From the NCBI GenBank assembly GCA_051294905.1, contig CM119372.1, forward strand, positions 32,302,001 to 32,366,000: DNA of 64,000 bases, given 5' to 3'. The stretch comes from Botryllus schlosseri (lineage: Eukaryota). The position numbers and the translations under genes were made by a program. Position 1 is the stretch's first letter. Each line of letters starts with the position of its first letter. The notes beneath the pieces are model-generated. The model saw only the letters and a list, made by a program, of their open reading frames with translations, ran no database searches and was not told the DNA's origin. Positions 12,042-36,200 of this stretch are shown in pieces.

Positions 12042-12050
12042 GCGTTTTTT
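12007..12050 (-). promoter_or_regulatory. -1 programmed ribosomal frameshift signal (gag-pol)
   Basis: A AAA AAC at 12050-12044 is in gag phase (TCA AAA AAC); pol is in the -1 frame; downstream hairpin GGG-T-GCTGATT...AATCAGC-T-CCC. Confidence 0.85.
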
Positions 12051-15257: not shown

Positions 15258-15275
15258 ATCCCAGTGGTGCCTCCA
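15258..15275 (-). promoter_or_regulatory. Primer binding site, tRNA-Thr type
   Basis: TGGAGGCACCACTGGGAT matches 17/18 the complement of vertebrate-type tRNA-Thr(AGT) 3' end as recalled (TGGAGGCACCGCTGGGAT); preceded by CA plus a 2-nt spacer. Confidence 0.85.
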
Positions 15276-15277
15276 AT

Positions 15278-16430: not shown

Positions 16431-16476
16431 ACAATAAATGTTCACTAACCCATACACATATCTACGACATAAAATG

Positions 16477-17150
16477 TTAGCGCCATTTTAAAGCAACCTG
16501 ATGGTATTGATCAAAGATACAGTAAAGGCAGTGCTTGAACAAAATGGCGTCACTATGCAATATTACATCAAAGTAACCCTCACATGAAAATACCAATGTC
16601 CTGTTATGACTCGTGCGTCTCGTCATCATGCCGCAGATTGATTCATGTCGTTGTTCGTCAAACGCATCTTCTCCGATCTCCATCATGGTATGTCCAGGAC
16701 ATATTTGGCAACCGTACATTTGGGTACTTTCGTCTCGTGCATCTATTTCGAACCCGATTTCTTCAACTCCCTTGATAATGAAACGATTCTTCTGCGTATC
16801 TTTCCTTGATTTTGCAGTCGTCTTCGTCGTCTCCTTTCTTCGTTATCTTTAACGTGAGCTTTGGCGGGCATTGTTCGGCACATTTCAACCTCTGGTTCAC
16901 TGGTCCCTGCTGAGCAGTGATTTTTAGCGCCGGATTTCTTCTTATCTCTTCTATTTCACTTCATTAAGCCCTAGATTCTATCGAGGGGAGCAGTCATTCG
17001 GGACTGTCGAATAGAAATTTTAGAGTTGGTACCACCAAGTCGTTTTTTTAATGCCAATAGAATGTCCAGTCCATCTCGATATTCTCATGCCATTTCATCA
17101 CTCCACCCAGTCTTATTATGGTCTTATTGAGAGCAAGTCATTAAGTTCTC
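16477..17150 (-). pseudogene. Decayed orphan ORF
   Basis: Protein-like segments (MKWHENIEMDWTFYWH*, EIEEIRRNPALK..., IKGVEEIGFEIDARDESTQMYGCQICPGH...KWR*) broken by stops and one frameshift. Confidence 0.45.
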
Positions 17151-17589
17151 GGCATGTTTTCCAGACGCTCTTCTTGTCATACAAGTTTTAGATACACTCG
17201 ATGCGCACAGAGAGGACATTAAAACACACACATATCAGAATTTCGCGTCATTTGCTATCGTAACGTTGTCACAATACAATAATTCGCATGCACGTACTGA
17301 TCATGGTGCCATAAGTGCACTCGTAAGACACATCCATTTCGTGAAACGAATGTGCAAACAAGGCGGGTCTTATTCTAATGTCATACTCAATCATCGACAC
17401 ATCAGTTTCGAAAAACGAATGTGTGGACAAGTTCAACCATGGGTTACTTTTCTAAGGTCTTTATTTTAGCAGTACTGGCTTGAGGTATTCCTAATGTTAT
17501 AGGCCTATTATTTCCGGTTATAATGTTCATTTTTATTCAACTTATGTAGTTCCATAGCCATTCACGACGTAGCTACGTTGTAAATCGCT

Positions 17590-18455
17590 ATGGTAGTGCC
17601 CTAAACGTTTTGTAAAATCTGTCCGTCTTACCCAGGATCTAAAATCAAGGTACGGAGCTGTATCCATTGTGGATATCGTCCTTAACATTTTGGAAAATCT
17701 GTCCGTCTTATCCAAGATCTAACATCAAGGTACGGATCTATATCCATTGTGGATATGGTCCTTAACATTTTGGAAAATCTGTCCGTCTTATCCAAGATCT
17801 AGAATCAAGGTACGGATGTATCAATTTTAGTAAGCCTTAACGTTTTGGAATATTTGACGGTCTTCTCCAGGGTCTAGCACCGAGGTACCGATATATATTA
17901 ATTATAGTGGCCCTAATCGTTTTGGAAAATCTGTCCGTCTTATCCAGGATCTAACATCAAGGTACGGATGACTATTGATTACAATAGTAGCCCTAAACTT
18001 TTGGAATATATTTCGGTCTTCTCCAGGGTCTACCACCGAGGTACCGATATATATTAATTATAGTGGCCCTAATCGTTTTGGAAAATCTGTCCGTCTTATC
18101 CAGGATCTAACATCAAGGTACGGATATATATTAATTATAGTGGCCCTAATCGTTTTGGAAAATCTGTCCGTCTTATCCAGGACCTAACATCAAGGTACGG
18201 ATATATATTAATTATAGTGGCCCTAATCGTTTTGGAAAATCTGTCCGTCTTATCCAGGACCTAACATCAAGGTACGGATATATATTAATTATAGTGGCCC
18301 TAATCGTTTTGGAAAATCTGTCCGTCTTATCCAGGACCTAACATCAAGGTACGGATATATATTAATTATAGTGGCCCTAATCGTTTTGGAAAATCTGTCC
18401 GTCTTATCCAGGACCTAACATCAAGGTACGGATATATATCCATTGCGGATATGGT
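17590..18455. repeat. Tandem array of ~11 units of 77-80 bp
   Basis: Unit cgttttggaaaatctgtccgtcttatccaggacctaacatcaaggtacggatatatattaattatagtggccctaat; exact 77-bp period at 18151, 18228, 18305, 18382. Confidence 0.95.
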
Positions 18456-18489
18456 TCTTTTTGTTGCCATCTTGTTCGACGCAACGCTT

Positions 18490-20100
18490 CTAATATCTTT
18501 TCACCTTTTGGTTTGTCAAGCATTCTCATTAGGGTCCGAGCCCAAGTCCAATCCAACTACTTCCTCATGGTACACACGACACATGACGCGTGTCCATTTA
18601 AACTACTTCCTCGTGTTACATACAACATGAGTTGAGTTTTTGCAGTAGCACTCTGGCTGTCAACCGGCTGCATGTAATATGTGCGGTGACAGTTCTCGGC
18701 AGCTCACATTTGAGCGCAACACCGGCTGAATAAATAAACAGCCACTGATAGCGCCCAAAATGAAGCAACCTAGTAAAAGCCTAGAAACCTATTGCCCCCC
18801 ACAAAGGCATTTTTTTCATTGTTTTATAATATTTTTTTGTGAAAATGATTTTATACTCCGTATAACTTTTATCTTTGATTTTCGCTTTCGTAATTTTTTA
18901 TATATTATGTACATGTTTTAGAATCTATTGATTTTATAATTTTGTTCGCATTGGGTTTTCATTTTTTTGGATTTTTTTCTTAGTGGGTATTATACTATGA
19001 TGCAATGCGCGTATATACACAATTTAATATATCTCTCCACCCCATCCTTCCCCCCTTTTTTGACAGGGATTGTCAACAGTCACATTCCTTTCAGCACACT
19101 TACAACGTGTCAACTGGGAGGCGAGGTCTTCCCATAGTTCACCAAAGTGTTATACTGGATAGGAAGTGCCGAGAGACGTGCTCATCATTTATTTACATTA
19201 CGCCATCACGTGAGCACCTGATAGGCTTAATTTTCCCCATTAATATAAACCGTCAGACACTCAAAAAGAAAACACCTCTTACCATTTGGTAAGTGCCAAG
19301 CGGTGCCATTGGTATCCATCGAGTGAGAGGGGTGCCGAGAGGCAGGGATGGGAGAATGTCTTCTACATAGATTTACATATGCGAGTTAGATATAGTCAAT
19401 AAAAGTAAATTTTATATCCTTATGAAATTCTTGATGTATTGTGCGTCCGTCACGATCGCGAATTCAAAAAATTTATAATATATAAGCAGCAATTTAAAAC
19501 ACTTTGATGTCTCATAGTTATATCACTAATATCTCGCGGAGCCGACTGTAGCGAGGACTAAGAAAAAGGAAAAAATATAAGTAAATTAGAAACTCAAATA
19601 TAATTAGTAGATTAGCAAAAACATTTCATAATGAAAATAGGGTGATTTTTCACGGGGCAGGGGGTCTGGGAATGTTATCCGCTTTTTGTTACTATCTTCT
19701 CCTTCTTATGACGATTATTCGGGTTGACGAGCGATCGCAATTGGACCACACTAGTCTCGTAAATGATTGTGGCGTTAAAACAAATCATTCACTACAATGA
19801 GCGAACCTAATTGCATTTGTACCATCCGAATTAATATAAACATTTTGTGTAACAGACAATAAATGTAAAGCAGACTATCACTGAAGACAAAACATGTTCT
19901 ATACTTATTCGAAAATTCATTTTTGTATATAAGGTGGAAATTGAGCAGCTTGCATTCGAGTAATTGAACTATCCGTAGTCCCCGAGATGTTATTTCAGGG
20001 TCACACTTAGCGATTCAATCACAATACAATGTCCTTTACTTTCTGGAACTTAACATAAATTTTGTGTATCGGTATAATAAATCCGTGTATATAATAAATG
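18490..20100. repeat. Diverged direct repeat module A (module B at ~30865-32140)
   Basis: Collinear blocks cactgatagcgc, cccaca(a)aggcatt, gagtgag..ggtgcc, gattagcaaa..catt and cagact.tca...gacaaa. Confidence 0.75.
18516..18810 (-). pseudogene. Decayed gene, copy A (paralog of 30890-31199)
   Basis: GAISGCLFIQPVLRSNVSCRELSPH and VYHEEVVGLDLGSDPNENA* align with copy B with mostly synonymous changes; stops and frameshifts elsewhere. Confidence 0.7.
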
Positions 20101-20390
20101 AAATACAAGAATACAGCTTCTACTTCAGAGCTATTCTCCAGTTACACTGCATTCTGACTCAAATTCTTTTTCCGTTAAGTTTAGCTAGACAGGGATGCCG
20201 AATTATTACGTTTGTCCTAATTCCCTATCAGCTATAGCCTTATTAATTTAGTTGTCCCGGCTTGTCTGGCAGTCTAAACACTACCAGTCCGTTTCCATAT
20301 TTCAAAAGATGGATAATCAACAGCAATAAAAGGGTGAACAAAAACAACAACAAATTATGACACTACTGTCATAACACATTTTAAAAGTGT

Positions 20391-20843
20391 CTACAGTTGG
20401 TTAGCATATTCTCGTATTAACGGGAATGCAACGTCAAGTAATTCTTCCGTTGAAAGTAATAATGCAATCGGAGATGTTACGTCTAGATGAGGAATACGAG
20501 ACGAAACTACATTCTCATGGATATGATCACTTATTGGATGCAGTCCCACGACGAATGTATACCAACAATATTGAGCACTTTCAAATTGTTCCAACACTAA
20601 CATTCTAGCGACTGCACAATGTTTATCATATATTGCCTTCCATAAACTGTCCGAGGGGGGTTTTCCGAAGCATTTCTTCAAGTATGTAGACATTGTTGCT
20701 TTTATAGTACCCATTGATGAAGCTGCCCATTCATCAAAACTCCTGTTTTGATATTCCGCTTCAAATATATCAAAGTATTCATTGATTTCTTGTTTTGCCT
20801 CTTCTACCTCCCAAGTCTTTACCGTAATAGTTTCATTAGACAT
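20391..20843 (-). CDS. Orphan family A protein, copy 1
   Basis: Shares W..E.AK..I..Y...FE.EY..R.FD.W and A.Y.W.....LHP with 22117-22521 and 22518-22973. Confidence 0.75.
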   Translation of the reverse strand: MSNETITVKTWEVEEAKQEINEYFDIFEAEYQNRSFDEWAASSMGTIKATMSTYLKKCFGKPPSDSLWKAIYDKHCAVARMLVLEQFESAQYCWYTFVVGLHPISDHIHENVVSSRIPHLDVTSPIALLLSTEELLDVAFPLIREYANQL

Positions 20844-21023
20844 ATTCGATATGAGTTTTAGGCACTAAACACAAAAGATCTTATGACTCTATGGCTCTAT
20901 GACTATGACCGATAGGGTTTGCACGAAAGATTATGTGCATCTACAAATGAATCACGCATACTATGTATGTTGATGACGCGTTTTAGCTATTTTGTCTTAC
21001 TTAATGGTACGCCACCCATGGAT

Positions 21024-21479
21024 TCACTTAGCATACATCTCAGTCCAGTCTCGTGCCGTTTTCTGATAACGATCGAAATTATCTCGATACATCCTGGCAC
21101 TTTCTTCATCCATTGGATCATCAGGATTCGGAGAAGCCAGAAGTGAAGAAATCGATATTAATATCATTACCAAAGTCAAAACTGGAGACCACTTATCAGA
21201 GAGGATGTCGATGCAAATTGTACCCTTTCGACTTATATTTGGATGAAAAATCTTCGTATTGAATGTAATTTTAGGTGGTTTGAAGGGATATTCCGTGGGG
21301 AATTCAACTCTCATATGGAATGTCCCTCCATCGTACGGTGTTTCTGGTGGTCCACACAACATCGCATGCCAAACAAAGATATCTGATTCATCGAAGGGCC
21401 CCGCTTGCAAAATTGCGGGATTTGTTTGGATTTCTCGAGCGATTTTTAGTCGTTCGAAATGTAGTCTTTTCTTCGCCAT
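21024..21479 (-). CDS. Ubiquitin-conjugating enzyme E2, UBE2D/E-like, intronless; start MAKKR
   Basis: YPFKPPK, HPN tripeptide, active-site Cys in GTICIDIL, WSP, PNPDDP. Confidence 0.95.
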   Translation of the reverse strand: MAKKRLHFERLKIAREIQTNPAILQAGPFDESDIFVWHAMLCGPPETPYDGGTFHMRVEFPTEYPFKPPKITFNTKIFHPNISRKGTICIDILSDKWSPVLTLVMILISISSLLASPNPDDPMDEESARMYRDNFDRYQKTARDWTEMYAK

Positions 21480-21547
21480 TCGACGTAGTACTATGCTATC
21501 AATTAATCTTATATATGCAAAAAAAACAAAAAATGGGAAGATAGGTA

Positions 21548-22000
21548 TTACCAAAACAATCTTCTGTCTATCGCATACATATCACGTGAAAGACTTGCAA
21601 TAGTTCTACGCGAAATGTGCCAATCCTCGTCAACATTAACCATGGCCAATATATAGAGTAGAAATACATACAGGTAGTATGCAGGACTTTCCCCAAACTT
21701 TTCCTTCACAATACGTTCCAACATTTCGTTAGCACATTTCAGTTGTTCTCTCACCTCCTGGTCCCGGTATAGCCAAACGAGGAAATCCTTCAATACGAAT
21801 TCCATGTCACTAGCTGTCATAGTCGGAAAGTTTTTCACTTTTTCTCTTATCCGTTCATGTACAATCCCAATCCTCAGCCATGCAACTCTGCTGTCAGGAA
21901 TTGTAGGATATGGACATGGTTTAAATTTGTTGCGATCCAATCCCTTTCTTTGGGGATCCTTGAGTACATATGAATAATTCTCACCATATACTTCTAGCAT
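21548..22000 (-). CDS. Orphan protein, 150 aa
   Basis: ATG-initiated ORF tightly packed in the same-strand cluster; no motif recognised. Confidence 0.6.
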   Translation of the reverse strand: MLEVYGENYSYVLKDPQRKGLDRNKFKPCPYPTIPDSRVAWLRIGIVHERIREKVKNFPTMTASDMEFVLKDFLVWLYRDQEVREQLKCANEMLERIVKEKFGESPAYYLYVFLLYILAMVNVDEDWHISRRTIASLSRDMYAIDRRLFW

Positions 22001-22116
22001 TTTACTTTTGTAGTTTCCTTAAATATATAATTCCTGGTTATAAATGACCCACCCTTTTAAATCAAACATAAACAATCAATTTTCATCCAAACGTACGTCT
22101 AGAACTCAAAACATGT

Positions 22117-22521
22117 TTAATTAGGTTCCAAATGTGCTCCTATCCATTGTATTGGGAAATCATCTTTCATGGGATGCATATGGACAATATGTTTGTACCA
22201 AAGAAATTTGGCTTCTTTATAGTTTCCCAGAGTTATGATCGCAATTCGATTATGTTCTTCAATAGCGGCTTGATATCCAAAAGCTTTTCCTTGTAAGGAC
22301 AATGAATTCCTATAAACTTTGTCCACGTACGGCGTCAACATTCTGACAATGTCGTTCGGTCTTGTCATAGCCCATCTTGACCACCTGTCGGATATTTCTA
22401 CGTATTCTTCATAGTATTTACAGAACATACCAAAATAGAATTTAAAATCATTTGCTGCCGATTCATGTTCAATCTGTATCCATTCCCTTTTACTTATAGA
22501 TTTTCGAGGCATACCTCTCAA
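22117..22521 (-). CDS. Orphan family A protein, copy 2 (diverged)
   Basis: W...E...A...F..YF, RW, EH..IA...L.N...A...W...IV..HP pattern. Confidence 0.7.
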   Translation of the reverse strand: MRGMPRKSISKREWIQIEHESAANDFKFYFGMFCKYYEEYVEISDRWSRWAMTRPNDIVRMLTPYVDKVYRNSLSLQGKAFGYQAAIEEHNRIAIITLGNYKEAKFLWYKHIVHMHPMKDDFPIQWIGAHLEPN

Positions 22522-22973
22522 TCGTGTAAAACAACAATTTTTGCAAAAGCGACTTCTAAAATCGGAATAGCAACAGTTTTAAATTCTCGTTTAGTTAATA
22601 GTAACGCCGTAGGGGTTCGCAAATTCATTTGCGGTAAGCGTTCATCCACAAACTCTTTGGGTAAATATTCGTGAGCTGGATGCAGCTTGAAGATGAGTCC
22701 GAACCATGTGTATTGGGCCTGATCAAAATTTTTCATAACAAAAACACGAGCAATTTCACCGTGAGCGTTATAAAGCCTATCAAGTAGTTCGGGGTTTACA
22801 TCCGCAAAACATAGGTGTAGATATTTAGCCAATAATTGTTCAAATTTTTCTTTCGGAGTAGCTTTCCATTTATCAAAATTTCGATGATGATATTCTTGCT
22901 CGAATGCATCTTAGTATTTGCTGATTTGTTGTTTAGCTAGCGTAATTTCCCAATTTTCTAACACACTAGTCAT
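22518..22973 (-). pseudogene. Orphan family A, copy 3, with one premature TAA at 22913-22911
   Basis: MTSVLENWEITLAKQQISKY*DAFEQEYHHRNFDKW continues in frame into ORF 22518-22832 and aligns with copy 1. Confidence 0.8.
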
Positions 22974-22988
22974 CTTAATACAACAAAA

Positions 22989-23849
22989 TCACATTGAAAT
23001 CATATACTCAATATCACAAGTAAATGATTCGTAAGAACAAGGATGAATAGTATAATTCTGCACTGTACATGTTCTGGTCGTAAAGTTTCTTATTGTGCCT
23101 CTAAGTCCCAAATCATCTTGACAATGCCAAAATTCAGATTTATTTATCATTATATCATCAACATTTCCAAGAACATCGTAGTAAGATGTTTTTGGAATTA
23201 TGGTATCCGTTGCCTTGGATATTGCCCCCCTCAGTAATTCATATATCATTAATCTTCTCCCGAAATCTTCCTGCAGATCACGAGTTGAAAGTATGACATT
23301 TATCATATTATTAATGCTTTCCAGATCTTGCGGTGATACATGAGGGTATAAACCTTCCGTCACGAACAATTTGTTCTTGCTCAAATATGGTATCTCTTCA
23401 TCATTCATTCCAGGTCCATCCGAATCCAAAATTTCTTCCAATGTCTGTTTGAAATAAGTATGATCTCCTTCATATTTGTCATCAGAATCACTCTCCCGCC
23501 CATCCATATCCGGCCAATACTGTTGTACAGGGGAATGTATCATCCAATCCTCTCGTTCCACGATCAATTCCCAAACCTTATTGAGAAAGTCTTGTTGTTG
23601 GTTTTGATCCTTTCCCGTAAGTTTACGAATATCAATGGCTTTCAATGATTCATAAATTCTGCGTATGTTACGGCAGTTTTGTTCGACAGCATCCTCGACT
23701 TTCAAAGTGTGACCATACCTGTCACGTACATTTTGAAATTCTATCATACTAGTACCCATTTCTCCAAAACTTAATAACAAAAATTTTAGAATTGAAACAG
23801 CCATCCCAGTACACCATACGCACTCAAAACTGCAGTATTCACTAATCAC
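22989..23849 (-). CDS. Orphan family B protein, copy 1; true start probably downstream of the GTG
   Basis: C-terminal IYELLRGAISKATDTII...WHCQDDLGLRG motif shared with two other ORFs. Confidence 0.75.
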   Translation of the reverse strand: MISEYCSFECVWCTGMAVSILKFLLLSFGEMGTSMIEFQNVRDRYGHTLKVEDAVEQNCRNIRRIYESLKAIDIRKLTGKDQNQQQDFLNKVWELIVEREDWMIHSPVQQYWPDMDGRESDSDDKYEGDHTYFKQTLEEILDSDGPGMNDEEIPYLSKNKLFVTEGLYPHVSPQDLESINNMINVILSTRDLQEDFGRRLMIYELLRGAISKATDTIIPKTSYYDVLGNVDDIMINKSEFWHCQDDLGLRGTIRNFTTRTCTVQNYTIHPCSYESFTCDIEYMISM

Positions 23850-23950
23850 CTCTTCAAAATATGAGCACTAACATATTAAAATGTTATTTTTGCTAGGTAA
23901 ACTAGCAATATACCAGCCTAGCAACAAGATTAATAGTCCTGCCTGTCCCG

Positions 23951-25639
23951 TCAAGCTCTATACACTTTGATTTTCTCGCATATCTTTACATCACAGATGA
24001 GGCATCGTTCTACATTGGTCGCGCACCTTTCACAAGAACATAGGTGTCCGCAGGGTATGAAAGTTACTTCACTCCTGTTTTTCCTGCATTGTTGACAAAA
24101 CACAGTCTCTTGTACTTCTTTTATACTTTTGGCGAGATCCTCTGTAGAAATAGATTCCGATATAGCTTCATTCTTCATTCCTTCTCTGGCACTTATGTCA
24201 CTATTTTTTTCAAGGATATTAGTTACTCGATGGTTTGTCGTTTGTGGATTAACCGATGTAATACTTGGTGTCGTAAGTAAGTCTTGAATAATGTCCCTTA
24301 ATTCACCACGGAAACCATTGTCTCGTCTGTTGATAGCTCTTTCTATTTGTCCTCTCGTAAATCCCATATTTTCCAATTGCATCCTTTTTCCGTATTCTTC
24401 AAGCGAGCTTGTCATGTTTCGACGTCCCTCGTCCTGTAGCTCGTCCAGACATATCCCATTCCTTATCGAAGGTCGATTAAGATTGGGGTGTTCATTCTTC
24501 AGGCGCAATACGAAATCAACGCCTTTCATTTGAAAAACGTACTCGCAACCTGGGAACCACTTAGCATGTTCTGTCCATGGTTCGTCGTTGTAATCCCAAT
24601 TTTGCAAACCTCCGTTACAATAGAAACACTTTGTCTTATCTGCATTTCCAAGGAAAAACAGACCAGCTCTCGCCAACTGTTCAACTGGCGCAAGAATTCT
24701 TTGTCTTGGCCATTTATCGTTAAAGGAATCTATTCTTTGTTGCAACGTCATCATATGTGAATTTATCGGATATAGGCAAGGAAATCGTTCAATCAACCTA
24801 AGCTGTTCTTCCGGTGAAGGTTCCGGCGGTTCTCCAGTATTAGTCGTTAACCTCTCAATTTTTTTTCGAATATTGTCATCCGCTTGATTCCTTTCAGATT
24901 CCGTCATTGGTACATTTCCCGTATAGTCGTCGTTTACAATCCTGCACTTGGCAAAATGTATTTGATGTTGTTCGATTATATTATCAGTAGGTGCCCAGTT
25001 TCGAAGTACTCCCGAACACGAAAAACATTGTGTTCTATCTAGGTTTCCAAGATAGAAAAATCCTTGTTTGGCTAATTCCCCCACCAAATATGGAGCAGGG
25101 TAGGATGGCCATTTGTCAAAGGTTTTCCTCCTCTCGAACTCACTTCTCAAATTCATGGTTCGCAGTAATATCTCATGTTCTCGGTCACAAATATTAGCGA
25201 ATATGGTTTGTGGTAATTGATGCTCCAGCTCTCTGGTAGTTGTTCTTCTTGTATCCCGATCAGACCGAGTTCTTGTGAAGTTAAAGTTACCCCTTATGTG
25301 TCCAAAAAAAATCCTCGTAGAACAGTTCGAAATAGTCACGTTGTAGCCCTCTCGTCCCGACACCATACTGCAAGTAGCTTCATGCCAACGATTGTCCAAG
25401 ACATCGTCTTCAATGTCCCAGTTTTCCACGCAAATGCCGCAGCCAAAGCACTTTACTATATCTTTATATCCCGTCCAATAAAAACCCGCAGCTGCCAGAT
25501 AAATCGGCATTACAGGAATTTCCTTAGGATAATGTTTGAACGTTGCAAGTCTATAATTTTCCACCCAATGATTCCCAGGTGGTATATAGGTACAGTTCTG
25601 ACCAGGAAGATCGCGATCTCTGTTTGTACGGACCCCCAT
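23951..25639 (-). CDS. Inhibitor of apoptosis protein: 3 BIR + UBA-like + RING, intronless
   Basis: BIR2 and BIR3 have canonical CX2CX16HX6C; BIR1 is degenerate; MGF UBA motif; C-terminal RING CQQC...PCGH..CERC...CLIC. Confidence 0.95.
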   Translation of the reverse strand: MGVRTNRDRDLPGQNCTYIPPGNHWVENYRLATFKHYPKEIPVMPIYLAAAGFYWTGYKDIVKCFGCGICVENWDIEDDVLDNRWHEATCSMVSGREGYNVTISNCSTRIFFGHIRGNFNFTRTRSDRDTRRTTTRELEHQLPQTIFANICDREHEILLRTMNLRSEFERRKTFDKWPSYPAPYLVGELAKQGFFYLGNLDRTQCFSCSGVLRNWAPTDNIIEQHQIHFAKCRIVNDDYTGNVPMTESERNQADDNIRKKIERLTTNTGEPPEPSPEEQLRLIERFPCLYPINSHMMTLQQRIDSFNDKWPRQRILAPVEQLARAGLFFLGNADKTKCFYCNGGLQNWDYNDEPWTEHAKWFPGCEYVFQMKGVDFVLRLKNEHPNLNRPSIRNGICLDELQDEGRRNMTSSLEEYGKRMQLENMGFTRGQIERAINRRDNGFRGELRDIIQDLLTTPSITSVNPQTTNHRVTNILEKNSDISAREGMKNEAISESISTEDLAKSIKEVQETVFCQQCRKNRSEVTFIPCGHLCSCERCATNVERCLICDVKICEKIKVYRA

Positions 25640-26089
25640 ATTTATTTTTTTTCCTTAAATTCTATTTTTCGGTGTAGTAGTACATGGCAGAACAGGCATT
25701 CATCTATACTAGGTCGAGGTGATGGTCTCTCAGGTGAATATACCTTATTTACTCAATTCCATCATAATCATACAATTGTTCTGTACACAACACGGAGACA
25801 AGATAAATAAAAACATTGCACAATAAAATATCTCAAACTTGTAACAAGAGACTCTCTAACAAAACTTCAACAACATTTCACATTCAACATCTCATACCAT
25901 TCTCCTTGTCTCACCAGGTGGTTCTAATCAACATTATTTTTCATTTGATATTTCAATCTAATGGAAGAACGATAATAATATACAATTTTTTCATAGTTCA
26001 CGATTGATATGGCCCGCATTCCAAGTGATTTAGCAATCTCCATGGGTTAGAGGTTAGGCCGTCGTTTAATCATTTTGACAAATGAACAC

Positions 26090-26908
26090 TTAATAACGAG
26101 AATTTCGGTAAACAATGTTGGAATTTTCCAAAAATAGGTTCATTGACTGAGCGTTGCTATTAACTCTTTTCGAATATATGTATATATATCCATCCATTGC
26201 AACAGTTTTCGAGTCCAGTATCAAATACCCTTTCACTCCAAAATTCGTTTGACTATGCCAAGTCCACGCGGAGCTAGCACTTCTTATATGACTAAGATCG
26301 TTTGTGCGTATCAAAATATTCGTATATTTCATCACTACTCCACGTATCACTTCATATATTACTTGCCTTATTCCTGAGGGAGGTATCCTTCTGATTACCC
26401 CTAGCAGAGTTTCCGTAATTATAGCCCACGAAATTTCATCCGGCTGTATAGTTTGTTCCTTCCATACTTTTATGCTTTGTCGCTGTGATGAATTCTTTAC
26501 GATGGCAGAATCTTGGGAGTCGTCGGAGTCCGTATCATCGAACGTATCTGAGTCCAAATCGTTCTCTGTTTCGTCCTTAATCGTCCAATCTTGGGTTTTA
26601 CAGATAGAGCATGAATGATGCCTTTTATACCAATTGTTTTCCTTTCCGAAGAAGGTTTTTAGCGCATCGGTTATTGATACAAGACACCGTGGATTTTTTG
26701 TTACCTCAATTTCATCAAGTTGTGTTATCAGATTGCGAAAAATGGCAGCGTTATGATTCCGTATATCGTCTAAATACATTATGTCACTATGAACACAAAA
26801 CGAAAACGTAACAGCAATAAAGGATTCAGTGTTATGTACGTGCACACTAACACTCCCATAGTACTTATGATACCAAGACTGTACTTGTGCTAGATTGCGT
26901 TGCAACAA
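26090..26908 (-). CDS. Orphan family B protein, copy 2; likely ATG at 26779
   Basis: IYEVIRGVVMKYTNILI...WHSQTNFGVKG motif; acidic D/S stretch. Confidence 0.7.
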   Translation of the reverse strand: MLQRNLAQVQSWYHKYYGSVSVHVHNTESFIAVTFSFCVHSDIMYLDDIRNHNAAIFRNLITQLDEIEVTKNPRCLVSITDALKTFFGKENNWYKRHHSCSICKTQDWTIKDETENDLDSDTFDDTDSDDSQDSAIVKNSSQRQSIKVWKEQTIQPDEISWAIITETLLGVIRRIPPSGIRQVIYEVIRGVVMKYTNILIRTNDLSHIRSASSAWTWHSQTNFGVKGYLILDSKTVAMDGYIYIYSKRVNSNAQSMNLFLENSNIVYRNSRY

Positions 26909-27150
26909 TTATTTTCAAACAAGCCGCATCCGTACCAATATCAACCGCTTTTTTATTTTTTATTTTTTTTTATTTTTATTTTTTTTAGTTAAGGAAAACA
27001 AAGGGCATATGAAATAGGATACTTGACTCCGGTACTCAAAACCGGCTGCTAACTCTTTAATATATACAATTTCCATCTTTAGTCAATTTCCAAGATAGAG
27101 GCATTCATGTTAAACAAATTTGATACTTTCAACAAATGCTATATCCAATA

Positions 27151-28098
27151 TTACAATGGTCTGTAATGAGGTTCACTCGCAATTATTTCCAAAAATCTTG
27201 GAAATCTTTCTTCTAGTGCCACTCGTCTTTTCCAGAGCCACTCATGCAAGTATTGGGGAATAAGTGATCGAGGTACACCGCACAATCGTCTGATAGCAGA
27301 CTTAAAAAAATTCCAAGAAGCCTCAATCAGCTGCGTATGCACACCGTCTTCACTAACATAGGTCTTATGGTGGTTCACTACCGAGTGTTTATAATTCATA
27401 CCCAAACTTTCTAATTTGCGATAGCTGGCAAAAGAATCGGTCCATATTGTAGATCCCTCTTTTACATGCTTCATAATTATCTCTGACAATACCGAAGCTT
27501 TTCTTCCTTCTTCAGGTACCAATTCTGCAAACATTTCACGAGTTTCCACATCTATTCCGGCCAAAACCCATCGCTGTCGTATCGGTCTTCCGCGGGGATT
27601 TCCCGGTTTTCGCTTAGCCACAAAGGTCTCATCGATCTGGCATACGTGGGATTTCCCGTGAGATTCACCGCCTATTCTGGTACCTCTTCTCTTCATTTCA
27701 CTTGAGCATACTTTTCGAAGTTTTCTGGACCAATTTACCAAAGTTCTTTTGCTGACATTCGCTTCGAACGCAATCTGTCGCTGTGATACATCTATTGTCC
27801 AAAGATAAACAATTATCACAAGGTTAGCGAGCTCTATTCTACTTCCCTCAAACAACGATCGTTTCCTTATAGACACTGTAGTATTGCACCTGGAAGTAGA
27901 ACACCTCCATCTATATCCATCCCTCAACCATCTACATTTTTCTTCGATCATTGGTTGTTTGCATTTGGAACATGTAGCTTCACGAGCAAGTAAATGGCGT
28001 GAACGCAGAAATTCTATACATTTTCGGCCACTTGAGATGATACCCAACCGAACAAGATGAAGCAGATTGTCCCTTCTCCGGATTTTCTTACATTTCAT
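27151..28098 (-). CDS. IS1595/ISXO2-like (Merlin-type) DDE transposase
   Basis: N-terminal CxxC...C...C Zn ribbon; QIDET, RGR...WV, IWTDS..SY..L, VNH, HTQLIEASW, YLHEWLW; all three acidic residues intact. Confidence 0.9.
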   Translation of the reverse strand: MKCKKIRRRDNLLHLVRLGIISSGRKCIEFLRSRHLLAREATCSKCKQPMIEEKCRWLRDGYRWRCSTSRCNTTVSIRKRSLFEGSRIELANLVIIVYLWTIDVSQRQIAFEANVSKRTLVNWSRKLRKVCSSEMKRRGTRIGGESHGKSHVCQIDETFVAKRKPGNPRGRPIRQRWVLAGIDVETREMFAELVPEEGRKASVLSEIIMKHVKEGSTIWTDSFASYRKLESLGMNYKHSVVNHHKTYVSEDGVHTQLIEASWNFFKSAIRRLCGVPRSLIPQYLHEWLWKRRVALEERFPRFLEIIASEPHYRPL

Positions 28099-28172
28099 TT
28101 TCAATTTATAAAGTATACACTCCAGTATAACGTAGATTCTGTATATACAAAAAAATGAAACAATGAGCGTTT

Positions 28173-28679
28173 TTAGGCAGGCACTTTCAAAGCCATAAAT
28201 CGGCAATCGGCTTCTTTTAACGATATTGCACGTGTTTGTGCATACGCGTAAATCTGAACTTCCGGAAAGATCACCCATACTATGAGATCCCGTTCAGTTT
28301 CCTCATTTCTAAGAAAATCCTTCCAGTCTGGGTTTACCCTTTTCAAGTCTGTAACCCATTGTATCCCGATATCTGCGAACGCCATTTGAATAGGTCTTTC
28401 AGGATAGAGGCTTCCTGCGTAAATCTCCTCCCACTCGTTTTCATCAAGATGTTTCCCAGTCCAATAGTTGTCGCATGTTGGAATACCATACTTCTGTTTC
28501 CAAAATCGTAGTCGCAGATTGGATTCATCCTTCATTACATTATACAAATGATTTGTCAAGGTGTATGTTGTCATGAGGAATTTCAGCGATTGTAGCCCAT
28601 AATCGATAAGTGCTTCCTTTTGGGGTATCCAAATTGGATGTTCTGTCTCCGGATCTTCACAACGCAAACCCAAACACAT
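28173..28679 (-). CDS. Orphan protein, 168 aa; weak similarity to 32255-33079
   Basis: ATG-initiated, packed in the cluster; LKFLMTTYTLTNHLYNV...RLRFW resembles LVMETIKTTPVRDHLMNL...RIQYW. Confidence 0.6.
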   Translation of the reverse strand: MCLGLRCEDPETEHPIWIPQKEALIDYGLQSLKFLMTTYTLTNHLYNVMKDESNLRLRFWKQKYGIPTCDNYWTGKHLDENEWEEIYAGSLYPERPIQMAFADIGIQWVTDLKRVNPDWKDFLRNEETERDLIVWVIFPEVQIYAYAQTRAISLKEADCRFMALKVPA

Positions 28680-28795
28680 ATTAATGGTCCCAGCTATGTT
28701 ATTACTATGGGTTCCTTATACAAACACACACCATATAAGTTGGATAGAACAAATCACACCCAATAAATCAAAACCCTATCATCGTTACTCAAACT

Positions 28796-29827
28796 TTACA
28801 GTAATCGAAATGTGACCAGACACCCAATAATGGTAACTGTTTGTTTCGAATGTATAGTCATAGCGAGGGATGGACTATCCGTCACTTCATAAGGCGAGTA
28901 TGATTGTTTCCGCCAAAGAAAACTTTCATATGACGTTCCGTTAACATATTTTTTAAATTTTAAAACCTCTAATTTTGGTAATTTTAAAAGTAAGGAATCG
29001 TTAAGAGACTGAATATAATTACAACTGAGATCAAGCGTGTGTAGACCTTGGAACGATGTATTGGAGAAAAGAGAGAAAAATTGTACGTTGTTATATGACA
29101 ATGTTAGTCTCTCCAGGTTAAACGAATATTGTAACACTGTCATTTCGAACTCAACCAATTTGTTTCCATCCAGGTGTAACGTTTCCAGTTCTCCCAATCC
29201 TCGAAAAACCCCTCGTTTTATAACCTTTATTGCATTTCTTGATAAGTCCAGTATTTTTAGACGATACAGGTGATTGAAGGCTCCGTCTTTTAACTCCTTT
29301 ATCACATTATTATCCAAATATAATTTTTTTAAATTTCCCAACATTGCAAATGTCGATTCGTTAATTTGTTCCAACAAATTGCTGCTGAGATACAGACACT
29401 CCAGTCGTAGCAGCCCAAAAAAATTTTCCTTCCGAATTTGTTTGATGTAATTTCGCATCAAGTTTATTTCCCTAAGCTTTGCATTATTACGGAAAGCAGC
29501 TCCTTGAAGTATCTGGATTTTATTCCAACCACAGTGCAATACTTCTATGTTCTCATATTTTTCCAGTTGATCTCCAGTTAATTTCCGTAGACAGCTGTCG
29601 TTAATGAATAGTTGTGATGTATCTCTACAAGACTTTGCCAGATATATCTGGTCAGGGTCTGGGATTCTTGTATAAATCGAATGGTCGCACCACAGGATCA
29701 AATTGCTTCCCTGCATGCATTCAGGATACAGTGAAGTTCGTCTATCATACGGCGTACACTTTGATCTTTCCATTATCCCTGAATCGATTGCGATACAGAC
29801 GCCAAACCAACATATTATTACTCTCAT
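28796..29827 (-). CDS. Secreted or surface leucine-rich repeat protein, intronless
   Basis: Signal-peptide-like N-terminus; eight 24-aa LxxLxLxxNxI repeats; Cys-containing N-cap; hydrophobic C-terminus. Confidence 0.9.
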   Translation of the reverse strand: MRVIICWFGVCIAIDSGIMERSKCTPYDRRTSLYPECMQGSNLILWCDHSIYTRIPDPDQIYLAKSCRDTSQLFINDSCLRKLTGDQLEKYENIEVLHCGWNKIQILQGAAFRNNAKLREINLMRNYIKQIRKENFFGLLRLECLYLSSNLLEQINESTFAMLGNLKKLYLDNNVIKELKDGAFNHLYRLKILDLSRNAIKVIKRGVFRGLGELETLHLDGNKLVEFEMTVLQYSFNLERLTLSYNNVQFFSLFSNTSFQGLHTLDLSCNYIQSLNDSLLLKLPKLEVLKFKKYVNGTSYESFLWRKQSYSPYEVTDSPSLAMTIHSKQTVTIIGCLVTFRLL

Positions 29828-30012
29828 ATTGTTTGTTTCGTTAGTAACTTATATAATCAAACATAAGACCATTAATACCCGTTCAAAATTTGCACCAATG
29901 AATCAGTAAACCCATATTTTCATGCTGCATGGAGCAATATAAACATCAACTTTTCAACCCAATATCTTCATATATACACCTTCTTTAATGTCGATCCTTA
30001 CTCTGATATCAA

Positions 30013-30561
30013 CTAATCAATATCAACACTACTTCCCTCATATGGAAAAGGATGTATTTCTATGCGTCTTATCCTTTCTGTTTGCCAATGAATTGAATTC
30101 GAATATCCTTTTAGTCCCAAATCGTTTTGACAAGACCATACTTCAACATGTGGTGGATCTTTACAACTATCTCTTTCATCATACACATTTTTGGAAATTC
30201 TAGTATTCGTAGTTTTTATCACGAGTCCCCTAATTAATTCATACAACATGACTCTTCTTCCAAAAGAGATGCGTTCATTCATTCTGATTGCAAATATGTC
30301 ATTAATCACATGACAGAAAGCATTTAATGTTTCTTGCGCTATTTCGTCATCTAGGGATACATCCACCGGTCCAAAGTTCGTCTGCTTAACCCATTCGATC
30401 TGGTCTGTAAGTAATTCCCATACCTTTTCTTTTACCATCAATATTCTAGATTCGTCATTGTAGTATTTTAGATCCCATTTATCCAATTCCTCATATACGC
30501 CATCCAAAAGGTACCAGTTTGGTAGATTATTATCAACCTCAATATAATCGAACTCTAACAT
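30013..30561 (-). CDS. Orphan family B protein, copy 3
   Basis: VKEKVWELL and LYELIRGLVIKTTNTRISK...WSCQNDLGLKG match copy 1. Confidence 0.75.
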   Translation of the reverse strand: MLEFDYIEVDNNLPNWYLLDGVYEELDKWDLKYYNDESRILMVKEKVWELLTDQIEWVKQTNFGPVDVSLDDEIAQETLNAFCHVINDIFAIRMNERISFGRRVMLYELIRGLVIKTTNTRISKNVYDERDSCKDPPHVEVWSCQNDLGLKGYSNSIHWQTERIRRIEIHPFPYEGSSVDID

Positions 30562-30733
30562 TCTATTTCCACTAAAACATCTTAAATTTTAAGATAATTT
30601 AATTCGATATATACAGTTCATAGTATTATAGAATCTATCCACAAGCACTTCACAACATATTCCGTATACATTTAACTTTGTCAAATATTCATATTCATTT
30701 GAACAATAAATCAACAAGAATAATCAGAACCCC

Positions 30734-30805
30734 GGCGCCGTGGCACAAGGTTTCAGCTCCTGATTCCCGACCAAGGGGTCCTCGGTTCAAACCCGGGAGT
30801 GAGCG
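30734..30805 (+). pseudogene. tRNA-like sequence with degenerate acceptor and anticodon stems
   Basis: A box TGGCACAAGG, T arm CTCGG-TTCAAAC-CCGGG, nominal anticodon CCC; acceptor stem does not pair. Confidence 0.55.
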
Positions 30806-30864
30806 TAGGGCAATACGTACTTGCTCCCGATGTTAAATGATACAACAAGCCTTTAGACCCAATT

Positions 30865-32140
30865 TGGAATTCTTCACTTATAATTTTTGTCAAGCGTTTT
30901 CATACCAGCTCAAACCCAATTCCAATCCGACCACGTCTTCATGGTACACTTCATATTTCGCGTTTTTCAATCTACTACTTTAACACTTCACATCCATAGC
31001 GAGTTAAGTTGTCGCTTTGTGCAACTCATCAAATAGTACTGTTGCGGTCAATCTGCTATTAGTAGCGTGCGCGGGGACAATTCCAGACAGCGTACAGTCG
31101 AGCGTAACACTGGCTGAATGAAGCCACAGTCACTGATAGCGCTCAGCCCAGGCGCTATCGAGTAAATGCACCAGAAGCGTATCACCTCCCACAAGGCATT
31201 TTTACCATTTTATTTTATTTATATTTTTTATTAAACGATATGTACATACTACTTTTTTTTTTATTTTTTGAGGATTTTTTTGGTGGGTATATAGAAATGC
31301 TATCACCATCCTTGTCTTCCTCCCCTGTCTACGGAAAATGCTGGCGCACATTTTCGCTTAGACGTGTTCATCCATGTCACAACTAGGAGCTTAGTTTTCC
31401 CACAAGTCAAGCACAAGGTACTTTACTTTATATGAATGTCTTCTTACTTTGAGAAATATCAAGTTTGGGACCCAGAGTGAGGAGAGGTGCCAAGAGACAA
31501 GGATGGAAGTATGGACAACTTAAATAAAGATTGGAATAGTACTAATATAAAATTTTCGAATCAAAAACTATCGAGAATAAGCTCAAGGCACAACACATCT
31601 ACATGTAGCGTATGTCTCAATGACAGCTCCATAAAACTACATAATAATCGCAGCATTAAAGAAAGATCTAGTGATAACAAGAAACTGTCTCGGGTTTATA
31701 TCTAGCAGAGCGTAAAACGTGGAAAAAACTTGAAAAATAATAAATAAAATTAATCATACGTGATCAAATGATTAGCAAAGCATTCCACCATGAACACGAG
31801 GTGATTTAAATGGCAGATGGTCCGGGGCTGTTACACGTTAATATTCGCCGTTCTAGTCCTACAGACGACACAATTCAACACCACATTTCACATCACCAAT
31901 GACCGACACCGCACAGACTTTCATCAATGACAAACTCATGGTCTTTTCTGAAGCGAAAAATCATTAATATACATATAGTGGAAATAGCTCATTGCTACAT
32001 TCAAGTATATAGGCATTTTAGTAGTCCTAGAGATTCTATTCAAGAGGCAGTGGTAGCGAGTCAATTCACAATGATAATTCGATGTATCGGAATATTGCTA
32101 TAAATCGGACCAATATATAATAACTCCGTTTATTTTACCG
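30865..32140. repeat. Diverged direct repeat module B
   Basis: Collinear with 18490-20100. Confidence 0.75.
30890..31199 (-). pseudogene. Decayed gene, copy B (paralog of 18516-18810)
   Basis: SAISDCGFIQPVLRSTVRCLELSPR, RLTATVLFDEL and VYHEDVVGLELGLSWYENA*; same terminal TGA as copy A. Confidence 0.7.
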
Positions 32141-32254
32141 ACCAGAGTACCAAGTGCGAATGACCCCATGTAGTTCTACACAATTGTCCACACATTATGC
32201 TCATCAGAAACCGTACTTCGTTAGACATTCTGAATCGTGATATGCCTCTAACCG

Positions 32255-33079
32255 TTACAAGTTTGAACCTTCACACATTTTCATTTTTTTTGGCTTGGGC
32301 AAAGTTTGGCTCCCATGTCCTCTACCCGGGGAGAGCCCAACGTATTGTATATTTTCAATCGACGAGGTGCACTCGTCACCTCTTTGTTGGGTACCTTCGT
32401 CTTTCTCTTTTCGAGGTTGGTGAGTTCGCTCTGACAACTGTTCAATAGGAAGAATGAAAGCACCTCCCACGAAGCCATAAATTGTCGTAGTTCCATATGT
32501 AAAGCTCCACCCTTCAGGGTTTCCGCCGTATAGTAGTTCAAATTCTGCCTGTTGTCGCAACATTAAAACATCCCAAAGGGGCAACTCTTTATCATTTCGA
32601 TAATATTGAAGCAATATGGCAATGGCGGTTACTAGCGCTTCTGCGTATAACACGTATAGAACTAAAAGTCCCTTTTCTTCCTCAGTATTTTGATTCAATG
32701 CCTTATTAATTTTACACGCGTCTTGTACGCAAGTGTGACACAGTTTTACAAGTTCCATTACATCCCAAGTGTTTTGAAAGTATGCACGAACGTTCCTCAT
32801 AACCCAACACTGTCTGCATTGATCAATTGTGGCCGGGCGGAATGGCACTTCCAATCTTGTCCAGTCCCCTTTTGTAAGTACGCACTTTTGCCAATATTGG
32901 ATTCTCGGGTTAGCATTTCCATGAGCTCCCATCAATAAGTTCATCAAATGATCTCTAACCGGAGTAGTCTTGATAGTTTCCATTACTAGGCGTTGTCTAT
33001 GCGTTAGCGGAATACTCGATGCCCACTTGAGTGCAAAACTATGATCAACTTCAGGCTGGCACAGAAGTCCGTGACACAT
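32255..33079 (-). CDS. Orphan protein, 274 aa
   Basis: Long ATG-initiated intronless ORF with a CxxC pair and a hydrophobic segment; last ORF of the island. Confidence 0.65.
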   Translation of the reverse strand: MCHGLLCQPEVDHSFALKWASSIPLTHRQRLVMETIKTTPVRDHLMNLLMGAHGNANPRIQYWQKCVLTKGDWTRLEVPFRPATIDQCRQCWVMRNVRAYFQNTWDVMELVKLCHTCVQDACKINKALNQNTEEEKGLLVLYVLYAEALVTAIAILLQYYRNDKELPLWDVLMLRQQAEFELLYGGNPEGWSFTYGTTTIYGFVGGAFILPIEQLSERTHQPRKEKDEGTQQRGDECTSSIENIQYVGLSPGRGHGSQTLPKPKKMKMCEGSNL

Positions 33080-33224
33080 GTTGTCTAAACTAACTCTTCA
33101 CCTATATCCCTTTTTTTGAAGAAAAATAGAATTACTGGGCGTTGTCTATGCGTTAGCGGAAAGCTTGATGCCCACTTGAGTGTAAAACTATGATCAATTT
33201 CGGGCTGGCACAGAAATCCGTGAC
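32982..33224. repeat. 94-bp duplication of the 5' coding end of ORF 32255-33079
   Basis: 32982-33075 is repeated at 33131-33224; the copy lacks the ATG. Confidence 0.9.
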
Positions 33225-36200
33225 TTTTTTACCATACGGTCATTTCCCAGTTTGCGTACGGAGAACGCATGTACGTCGCCGACTTCACGAGTACTATACA
33301 TAGCATGACAGGCAATTGTTGAAGCAGGCTATTAGGCCGCGTTGATACGTTGTTGCATAATATACAATGTACGTAAGTGGCTCATATACCAAAAATCATC
33401 ACCATGGTACATATGGTTTTTTATTTTAGAATCACTCCATTGCAAAATAGCTTAGCCATTAGCCGTTAATGAATACAAAATACACAGCGTTTAGGTAAAT
33501 GCAACCTTAATCCATGTAATCATGACCACAACCCGCGTTCACTACAGCCGTGCTCAGTCAGCATCGTCTAGTAGGCCCACCAAAATCCAGAAAGTTAGGT
33601 TACAATTTTTACTGAATACTATCCGACGAATAACGATAAACAGATCAGTGATGCTTTAAAAAGAAAAGAAAAAAAGGAAAAAACCACCATTTCAAAATGC
33701 AACATACAGTCGCGCAAGCATTGCTGCTTGACTCAATGCGCGAACATGCCAAATATATGCCCACAGGACATCGTTGTTATTGATTCTCTGCTTCTAGTAA
33801 TATCTGGCGTAACTGATTCAGTTAATTGGACAAAATCCCATTAACAGTTGTCACCATTGTGGTCAAAACACTATTCAGGTTTGTTGGCTCGGCGCACAAT
33901 GTCTTCTGAAGAATCAAACCATAGATAGGCTAACTAACATACGGAGGCTAGTTATCTATAATTTAACAGTTTGATATTCTGTCATTGCCTGAGACGTTCA
34001 AAGCGTTTCTGACGCAAGGGACGGACACTTTTATTGTCACACCCGATTAGAGTGGTAACTAAGTAAAAAGGTATGGAACACCTCTGACTGCGAGATACAC
34101 TCGATTGATTATTACTGATTCAGTCTCGTCCATCTCCATATCCTACTTCAACCACCTTCGTTTTATGGCGTAACAGTGGACTAACACGGTGTAGACCGCT
34201 ATTATATTATAGAATGTAAACGTTTACACTCTACAATAGTACTTCTCAACCTGTGTGACGGTTCGCAATTGTGCGAATTAAAACAATTTCAGTGCGAATG
34301 ACGAAGGTGGTGCGAACAGTGCGAATGAATTTACGGATCAAGTGCGAACGAAAATCGTGAACAATTGTTAATTTTTCTGATGGTGAATAATTCAAACAAA
34401 CCCAACAGGAAACCCAAGGTCAGTCGAACCTCTGTAGTAGTGACGCAATTTCGAGTTTCTTTGTTCCTCTCGTATAGCCTACTCGCGAGACAGAAGTTGG
34501 AGCAGCGTATCATAAGGTAGCGAGCTCTAATGTGCCTATATATTTTTTTTTTTTTATCGTTTTTCTATTATGTTCCAAGAGATAAGGAAAAAGCCTCAAT
34601 ACAATCATGTGGGGTTTTTCATCCGCCCAACAAACTGGAGCCTAAGGGCGATTTCTGCGAGCAAGCATTCTTCATTCGCGAAAATACGCTGCATTTCGGG
34701 CTGGAGTCCAGAACAGATTTTAAGACATGGCCATCCAAGAAAGTGGACGTTTTTGTACAAAACTCAACAACTCATTTTACAGAAATAGGTGAAATCAAAC
34801 CGAGCGAAAAAGTTGCCATTTTAATGTGACACTGCAATGCAACCTTGTTTTATACGGCCCGCGAAAGCCTCAATAAACGTGAAAATATTGATAAAATGCG
34901 CAAAATACCAAATTACTGTGGGTACTTGGTTAAACTTCTTCTTACTGTATTTCAACATGGTAACGATAAGTTATATTCTGCCATAGTATTTTTTTTTTTT
35001 TATTTATTTATTTTATTGATAGTGTGATGTCCCGAGCTCACGGCCCATGTATTTATGAAAGCTATCAATTGCTAAACAACACAGAACGTGAATCGTAAAT
35101 GACTTAATTTGGACTACAAGTGTGATCTAAGATTGGTGACAGGAGCAAGTGCAATACTTTTTGTGCTATACTTGGACAAACCGATTCGCAAGTGTGTCAG
35201 GTAGACTCGTTTATTTATGTGTAGAGGTATTTATATATTGTAGAACAGTATCTAATGGTAGCGCAATGATGTCGTCAGCCTTGTGTCCTGGAGTCAGACC
35301 AAAAGTACAATCAGCAATTCTACGAACAGATTGGTGCTCACAGACTCAAATTCACAACCAATTCTAAGAATCGGGGCAGGGACATCTAGAGTTCTAGATA
35401 TCCCTGAATATGGACAACAGGATTTCATCCATTATTTTGACAATGAGGACGAGCAACACATAAATTCTTGTCAATGTTTCTGAAGCGTGTACGCTATCAT
35501 CAAATGAATGTTTGGTTTGTCTTAAATAACCAAATACATACAAATTATTCCCATGTTATCGGTCACTATATTACTAAACAACAATATTTAATTTTGGCTT
35601 AGTATCTCGATTTTATATAGTGCGGCTCACGAATGGATTCAAATGTTGAATGAAGCCCGCGAGATAAACAGTTTGCCCACTCTCGAGGTAAGCAGACAAT
35701 TTTTTTGCACATCAGAACAAAATGTTGTTAAGTGTTATCATCTTCTATTTTATAACAATATTCGATTAGCACGTGCGAATGAAATTTGTCTTACACCAAA
35801 GATGCGAATGGAGCTCAAAAAGGCTGAAAAGCACTGCTCTACAATTATATCGTAGCAACGCCGCAGTACTTTCATGCAGTGTTGCACTGCATATTGGAAC
35901 TGATTATGAAACGGCGCGCTGTATTCTTGTGATACTAATTATTATGTCGTGGGACGGACGATGCTGCTTGGCGGGCCGGATCCGGCCCGCGGGCCGTAGG
36001 TTGCCAACCCTTGAACTACGCAATCGCGTAATATCGCAGAAGGCAACGCTTTTCCAATCCGACACAACATAGTGTCTATTGTACATATCTTCATGCTACT
36101 GAAGTGGTATCAACCCCAGTTGCTGGTGATGTGTAACTTGCAACTGCATAAGGGATTCGTAAGTATACACATTTTGCCTTATTTGACACCGCCCAGTGCC

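Follow-up and report, generated by a model that had tools for sequence, protein, structure and literature searches.

To our knowledge, reverse-transcribing elements integrate by means of a retroviral-type integrase, a tyrosine recombinase or a target-priming endonuclease, or have nothing for this step. A 64,000-nucleotide stretch of the Botryllus schlosseri genome (the window) holds a gag-pol unit that lacks an integrase and, at a distance of ~19 kb from pol, a gene for a transposase of the Merlin/IS1595 type. Could an enzyme of the cut-and-paste class do the work of the missing integrase? An earlier note on this DNA had suggested so, citing an intact DDE triad, a position co-oriented and packed with the neighbouring genes, and the lack of terminal inverted repeats (TIRs) or a target-site duplication (TSD) around the gene.

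The transposase gene and its flanks

27151-28098, minus strand: Merlin/IS1595-type DDE transposase, 315 aa (Pfam match, alignment and predicted structure)

The 315-aa frame matched the Pfam model DDE_Tnp_IS1595 at E=8.6e-17, scoring 62 bits where the cut-off is 27, and is laid out as a four-cysteine motif (C43, C46, C66, C71) followed by a helical region and a DDE core (D156-D221-E259). The catalytic residues, D156 in the context DET, D221 in WTD and E259 in LIE, were invariant in 10 of 10 aligned close relatives, which bears out the claim of an intact triad. An AlphaFold model of the protein (pLDDT 86.6, pTM 0.83) has an RNase H-like DDE fold at its core, for which the best match was the SIV intasome (Z 13.8, rmsd 3.2, 128 residues aligned); no solved structure related to the transposase by sequence was found. 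In alignment, the four-cysteine motif corresponds to the zinc ribbon found in an IS1595 protein of bacterial type, and the Pfam zinc-ribbon model gave no match on the transposase. The frame extends open to an ATG at 28278 (375 aa), and the closest relative begins at the 28098 ATG. The stretch 27151-28098 is an intact Merlin/IS1595 transposase gene.

Merlin is a common superfamily in animals; 7055 transposase representatives were retrieved at E<=0.001, the best of them 76% identical. A quick tree of 71 rows, which took in 70 of the 137 length-filtered matches, placed the transposase in a clade of 10 rows (SH-aLRT 97), inside which divergence reaches 34-46% identity with the catalytic triad still invariant; a Ciona intestinalis protein, 38% identical to the transposase, fell outside the clade. 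Those clade members that were looked up are located on short contigs, and no locus of the clade was found in viral contigs or in the prokaryote genomes searched. The Atlas neighbours of the protein are eukaryotic PF12762 clusters (score 0.97-0.98).

Merlin ends are described as beginning with 5'-GG and being bordered by 8-9-bp TSDs (PMC8101967). When 37,370 end pairs in the two spacers flanking the transposase were compared, the best inverted match was a T-rich 17/24, no better than the top of the 14-17 range given by 30 shuffles. Among the 16 GG..CC pairs in these spacers the best was 13/24, and the four spacer pairs with an exact 8- or 9-bp duplication, which are chance duplications, reached 7/24 at best. 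The same kind of scan across the whole window recovered ordinary TIR+TSD elements elsewhere, for example at 43962-45129. This element and three others, at 7452-7866, 2037-3395 and 1168-2001, are small and non-coding, with inverted ends and 8-bp flanking repeats, and served as positive controls. The reported lack of TIRs and a TSD, made by eye, was thus upheld against shuffles, and the flanking TIRs and TSD that had been held to betray a nested Merlin insertion are not present around the gene. A stand-alone Merlin transposon has GG-initial TIRs of 24-462 bp and an 8-9-bp TSD, both absent here; the locus encodes a Merlin transposase without itself being such a transposon.

The cargo block and its copies in other samples

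The transposase lies in a cluster of genes between two non-coding repeats, R1 and R2, with the following features.

32255-33079, minus strand: ORF274; single-copy depth in run X4, near zero in run X5
30886-32072: repeat R1; lies across the cargo cluster from R2, of which it is a diverged direct copy
30013-30561, minus strand: ORF182, orphan; no usable Atlas match
28796-29827, minus strand: leucine-rich-repeat (LRR) protein, 343 aa (Pfam); on the same X5 contig as the transposase
28173-28679, minus strand: ORF168, orphan, from the ORF list; adjoins the transposase in the X5 contig
26090-26779, minus strand: ORF229, orphan downstream of the transposase, from the ORF list
23951-25639, minus strand: intronless IAP with three BIR domains and a RING (Pfam)
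22989-23804, minus strand: ORF271, orphan; skipped by a joint in X5
about 22557-22970, minus strand: ORF150a paralogue, with one stop near its start
22117-22512, minus strand: ORF131, from the ORF list
21548-22000, minus strand: ORF150b, from the ORF list
21024-21479, minus strand: ubiquitin-conjugating E2 (Pfam)
20391-20843, minus strand: ORF150a, from the ORF list
18512-20025: repeat R2, non-coding; among the parts of the element tested in other runs, the one repeated most
17594-18439: 77-bp tandem array, 10.9 copies
15652-15877: 57-bp tandem array, 4 copies
19913-36683: 16.8-kb block (cargo, transposase, R1, ORF274 and a MITE-rich stretch), missing from a joined form in X5 and X10

The transposase ATG stands 74 nt behind the ORF168 stop (75 in the earlier note), and the transposase stop 371 nt before ORF229. 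All 11 listed genes within 20391-30561 are on the minus strand, so that the description of a co-oriented, packed gene holds, and the GC3 of the transposase (0.37) falls in the range of its neighbours (0.30-0.41). Read along the minus strand, the features are ORF274, R1, ORF182, LRR, ORF168, transposase, ORF229, IAP, ORF271, ORF150a paralogue, ORF131, ORF150b, E2, ORF150a and R2; then the 77-bp and 57-bp arrays; then a primer-site-like 20-mer, uORF115, gag, pol and a candidate end near 8329. The cargo therefore lies upstream of the primer-like site, and not in the usual place behind pol.

The orphan genes of the cluster fall into two paralogue families, of which one, comprising ORF182, ORF229 and ORF271 (27-36% identity, with a common C-terminal motif), has no Pfam match and no usable Atlas match. 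R1 and R2 are 66-69% alike in the parts aligned by BLAST. They were considered as long terminal repeats (LTRs) and rejected, given this divergence, their bracketing of the cargo and not of gag-pol, and the 3.2 kb between the end of R2 and the primer-like site. The 77-bp and 57-bp arrays upstream of that site are possibly promoter or origin repeats.

Three smaller observations concern the same region. Between the arrays and the gag leader, a small ORF (16477-16842, minus strand) is weakly like the BIR region of the IAP (tblastn E 0.002), with no Pfam match. Just before R1, a tRNA-like stretch was seen by eye at 30733-30810, where partly fitting RNA reads pile up; it is possibly the head of a SINE, and ARAGORN and Rfam gave no match there, nor any tRNA or Rfam match within the 64 kb. 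A 91% direct repeat (32982-33075 and 33131-33224) duplicates the 5' part of ORF274.

In order to compare the cluster with other copies, 4 of 24 listed runs (X4, X5 and X10 included; one RNA run) were compared with 18500-38400 at 80% likeness; X4 may stem from the same sample as the window. A 2333-nt contig from X5 spans 27672-29979, and so carries the 5' half of the transposase together with ORF168 and the LRR gene (2308 nt, 42 differences, no gaps); a contig from X10 spans 27882-28144, crossing the transposase start codon, with 5 differences in 263 nt. Because the transposase is contiguous with the same two upstream genes in another sample, it is unlikely to be a recently nested Merlin.

Summed contig depth over the transposase was 222 and 144 in X4 (single contigs 11-16) and 666 and 710 in X5 (versus about 50). 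These values, which are depths and not copy numbers, fall in the range of the shared cargo genes, 177-370 in X4 and 487-1255 in X5, bounded by the ORF182 bin (177 and 487, respectively) and the ORF131/ORF150b bin (370 and 1255). R2 stood above the transposase in X4 (683-1413), and the MITE-rich stretch at 33.8-36.4 kb far above it, with depths of thousands to tens of thousands; past 36.7 kb the depth was moderate again (207 and 552 in X4). ORF271 and ORF150a were at single depth in X4 and at zero in X5. The RNA run, of which 6% was read, gave no depth over the transposase, and 2780 of its 2785 placed reads fit only partly.

Two joints reveal how the cluster varies. One, 22982->23931, drops ORF271 and was seen in two X5 contigs. 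The other, 19912->36684, was seen in one contig each in X5 and X10; it drops 16.8 kb, including all cargo and the transposase, so that related copies without the transposase exist. Its two sides overlap by 1 nt, so the 16.8-kb block is not an insertion with an 8-bp TSD, and the block as a whole was rejected as a nested Merlin on this ground. The position of the joint suggests an element extending beyond 36.7 kb, although the joint may instead mark the junction of some other repeat. According to the earlier note, absence of the gene from other copies would mean a nested Merlin insertion. Such an absence was found in part, in this joined form, but there the gene is lost along with all cargo in a 16.8-kb piece whose joint overlaps by 1 nt and bears no Merlin-insertion footprint.

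That the gene is an ordinary nested Merlin whose ends have decayed is, on these data, very improbable. The depth over the transposase in X4 does exceed that of the bins on either side (52 and 39), Merlin is abundant in animals, and 110 joints exist beyond the 15 displayed. Against this, the gene stands within 74 nt of an intact upstream gene, its own frame is intact, no trace of ends was detected, the same upstream context recurs in two other samples, and none of the 15 displayed joints drops the transposase alone.

We also considered that the transposase is a passenger, captured in the same manner as the IAP, E2 and LRR genes and retained because it serves some other purpose or was copied recently, while another enzyme, such as a helper acting in trans, integrates the element. 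The gene does sit amid host-like cargo in a modular block from which ORF271 or the whole 16.8 kb can be missing, the RNA run showed no depth over it, and conserved Merlin ORFs without ends, read as domesticated, are described in ciliates and dinoflagellates (PMC8101967). However, the triad is invariant across a clade diverged to 34-46% identity, whereas DDE is lost in several of the end-less copies described in that report (PMC8101967), and an integrase-less lineage in many copies needs some integrating enzyme. We judge capture as a passenger to be unlikely.

The gag-pol unit and the ends of the element

Downstream of the arrays on the minus strand lies a gag-pol unit with the following parts.

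15258-15277, minus strand: primer-binding-site-like 20-mer, TGG-initial, 5 nt behind CA and upstream of uORF115
14881-15228, minus strand: uORF115, with a hydrophobic N-terminus and a Ser/Thr-rich tail, from the ORF list
12029-14872, minus strand: Gag-like protein, 947 aa, with a weak zinc-knuckle match below the Pfam cut-off; overlaps pol by 13 nt
8556-12041, minus strand: Pol, 1161 aa, with a protease-like motif, reverse transcriptase (RT; YIDD), RNase H and a Tpt1/KptA-like domain (Pfam, motifs)

The protease of Pol is assigned by its motif alone. The 20-mer is, we presume, a match to tRNA-Thr; among 48 viral loci with the primer-site motif, none held a tRNA gene. At the end of Pol, where an integrase would stand, is the Tpt1/KptA-like domain (8556-9070, minus strand). 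No integrase was matched in the window, and none in Pol, either by protein comparison or by Pfam on 18 + 83 frames; the Pfam frame scans covered frames of at least 68 aa outside bases 1-8000. Fifteen distant Pol proteins, of which most have integrases, were compared with the window, and their matches at E<0.01 were confined to RT and RNase H. When 15281-20300 was searched against 1-8555, no match was obtained at E<0.1; as nothing from this region is repeated downstream of pol, the element is without an LTR.

The lack of an integrase extends to the relatives. Among 19 Pol matches, four are close (36-46% identical), and all four are without integrase; six outside Pol relatives were scanned, and all six matched Tpt1, three of them with scores over the Pfam cut-off, and rve matched none of them. 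Pol relatives at 33-42% identity still retain the RT and RNase H motifs. One Pol relative belongs to a 31-member cluster, several members of which are on megabase contigs; the lineage thus multiplies despite having no integrase. A quick tree built on RT-RNase H (28 rows) set the seven Tpt1-type rows apart from 17 gypsy-like rows (97) and four IMG/VR rows (100). Judged from these sequences, integrase loss is a property of the whole Pol lineage. Six Pol relatives came from metagenome contigs, of which the two close ones were both under 5 kb; these contigs, L008:1-4703 and L009:1-4776, one of which is labelled marine, hold the same gag-pol type, and L009 has the Tpt1-like Pol end and a frame break inside RT. 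Seven relatives, all distant, were in viral contigs, and none was found in prokaryote genomes. No contig outside Botryllus schlosseri was found to hold both this Pol and a member of the transposase clade, most such contigs being too short.

These features bear on whether the element could be a giant Merlin DNA transposon which moves by cut-and-paste only, with gag, pol and env as cargo or as a supply of particles, and with reverse transcription not used for new insertions. The lack of an LTR would fit, as would the internal position of the putative primer site and the size of the element, which may exceed 28 kb and holds MITEs, and is large for an RNA genome. Yet gag and pol are intact, the RT and RNase H motifs have been preserved across the diverged relatives, the cargo ORFs are intronless, and a TGG-initial site lies just ahead of the gag leader. 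We consider a purely cut-and-paste element to be quite unlikely.

If the transposase acts on the whole element, it would do so at inverted repeats at the ends of that element. The candidates in the window, and the MITE beside one of them, are as follows.

8329-8555: candidate left end, with GG at 8329 abutting a MITE
8077-8320 (8069-8328 with flanks): 244-nt MITE whose arms, counting the flanks, measure 114 nt; bears a palindromic 8-bp duplication
60573-63884, minus strand: intact membrane-anchored Thr-rich ORF, 1103 aa, with a signal-like start and a C-terminal hydrophobic stretch

With the left end allowed anywhere within 8060-8555 and the right end up to 63980, the best TIR+TSD pair among 373 exact 8-bp pairs reached 7/12, against 7-10 in 30 control windows. 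Element-level searches for TIRs and TSDs inside the 64-kb window gave nothing above chance, and the far end may be beyond 64000. The 8-9-bp TSDs and inverted repeats which the earlier note proposed to look for at the element ends thus yielded no pair inside the window. Two candidates were discarded: an inverted match between 8346-8388 and 31309-31346, which exceeded 20 of 20 shuffles in a narrow test but was equalled by 13 of 30 in a wider one, and an element splitting a TTAA-type repeat starting at 7950, the other half of which was not found.

The 1103-aa ORF, on which Pfam gave no match at its cut-off, is possibly the far end of the same element and is a candidate member. A host gene was sought between 33 and 60 kb and rejected, with one decayed alpha-spectrin-like exon as the only trace among 83 frames. 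This exon (57630-57857, plus strand) lies behind a splice-acceptor-like site and ends in a stop, and a second exon-like piece was seen by eye at about 58925-59060. The stretch from 38 to 60 kb looks like host DNA that is rich in repeats and contains this decayed exon.

A proposed element family and its known counterparts

The proposal of a substitute integrase therefore stands in part: the transposase behaves as a resident gene, the gag-pol unit has neither integrase nor LTR, and the loss is lineage-wide, but the TIR/TSD pair expected at the element ends was not found in the window. The distance of ~19 kb between the gene and pol also counts against it. The best explanation, to which we give an even chance, is that Merlin is the integrating enzyme of the element family and that the gene at 27151-28098 is an internal, probably second, copy of it.

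We reason that the element would be copied through RNA, by tRNA-primed reverse transcription inside Gag particles, and that the Merlin enzyme would bind short inverted repeats expected at either end of the whole element and insert the DNA, generating an 8-bp duplication. As the primer-like site is internal and pol stands at one end, what is integrated would be the RNA genome in circularly permuted form; it would derive from an excised circle that, past the point where the ends join, would lead from pol into Merlin and env. A step of excision to a circle has been suggested for Teratorn, where it is likewise a proposal (PMC10175614). The 16.8-kb cargo block between R1 and R2 may have come by recombination from a second member of the family, bringing its own Merlin gene.

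In its full form, the model describes virus-like elements of a new kind, reverse-transcribing and present in marine invertebrates: a Merlin/IS1595 transposase and inverted ends replace integrase and LTRs; the stored DNA is the RNA genome in permuted, circularly shifted order; the circle reads gag, pol-Tpt1, Merlin, env and cargo, with the transposase at the place of an integrase; and members swap cargo blocks that carry their own Merlin genes. We put this forward tentatively, as a model with somewhat less than even prospects. If true, a retroelement using a cut-and-paste transposase of the bacterial IS1595 type would cross the divide between class I and class II elements, extend the Teratorn principle to retroelements and provide a living model of integrase replacement. 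It would also explain the many copies of an integrase-less Pol lineage, and offer a route for the spread of IAP, E2 and LRR genes. If the system is real, it represents a new kind of element. The family counts for more here than the gene at 27151-28098, which could be a spare.

A search of the literature by title and start of the abstract, outside Repbase, subscription journals and supplements, found no integrase-less retroelement carrying Merlin. DIRS-type elements and pararetroviruses are reverse-transcribing, lack a retroviral integrase and have circular DNA stages. DIRS elements use a tyrosine recombinase, and we know of no integrating enzyme encoded by pararetroviruses. No tyrosine recombinase of the DIRS/Ngaro type was matched among the frames scanned (frames of at least 68 aa outside bases 1-8000).

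With the envelope-bearing Ty3/gypsy elements and retroviruses, the element has in common Gag, a protease-like motif, RT, RNase H and a primer-site-like sequence. It differs from Ty3/gypsy (Metaviridae) and Retroviridae in having no integrase and no LTR, in the Tpt1-like end of its Pol and in the cargo upstream of its primer-like site; the gag-pol partner works like a gypsy or retroviral one but belongs to neither group. Its IAP/BIR cargo recalls the giant Burro elements (PMC6431247). The Kuafuorterviruses (Troyka) are, similarly, described as a neglected reverse-transcribing lineage of marine animals (PMC11673190); as characterised there, they have LTRs, an integrase, a length of 5-6 kb and an IADD, VADD or LADD motif, whereas Pol here has YIDD and no integrase (PMC11673190). 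Without LTRs, integrase or the [IVL]ADD motif, the element is not a Kuafuortervirus.

On the side of the transposase, the protein has in common with the Merlin superfamily and the IS1595 family (IS1016 group) the DDE_Tnp_IS1595 domain, an intact DDE and a length of about 300 aa (PMC8101967, PMC10045372). It differs from the superfamily in standing without TIRs or TSD, in a gene cluster linked to gag-pol, and with a four-cysteine motif. That an entire virus genome can be moved by a DNA transposase is described for Teratorn (PMC10175614). Teratorn, which consists of piggyBac and an alloherpesvirus, likewise has a DNA transposase within a large virus-like element with many accessory genes, and is proposed to integrate as a whole unit (PMC10175614, PMC6431247). 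No piggyBac transposase or herpesvirus core gene had a Pfam match among the 18 + 83 frames of the window; here a reverse-transcribing gag-pol takes the place of the herpesvirus, and Merlin that of piggyBac. For Teratorn, the TIRs, the TTAA target and activity are reported as demonstrated, whereas no ends were found here within the window. By analogy, Teratorn is the closest known principle to an element that joins Merlin to gag-pol.
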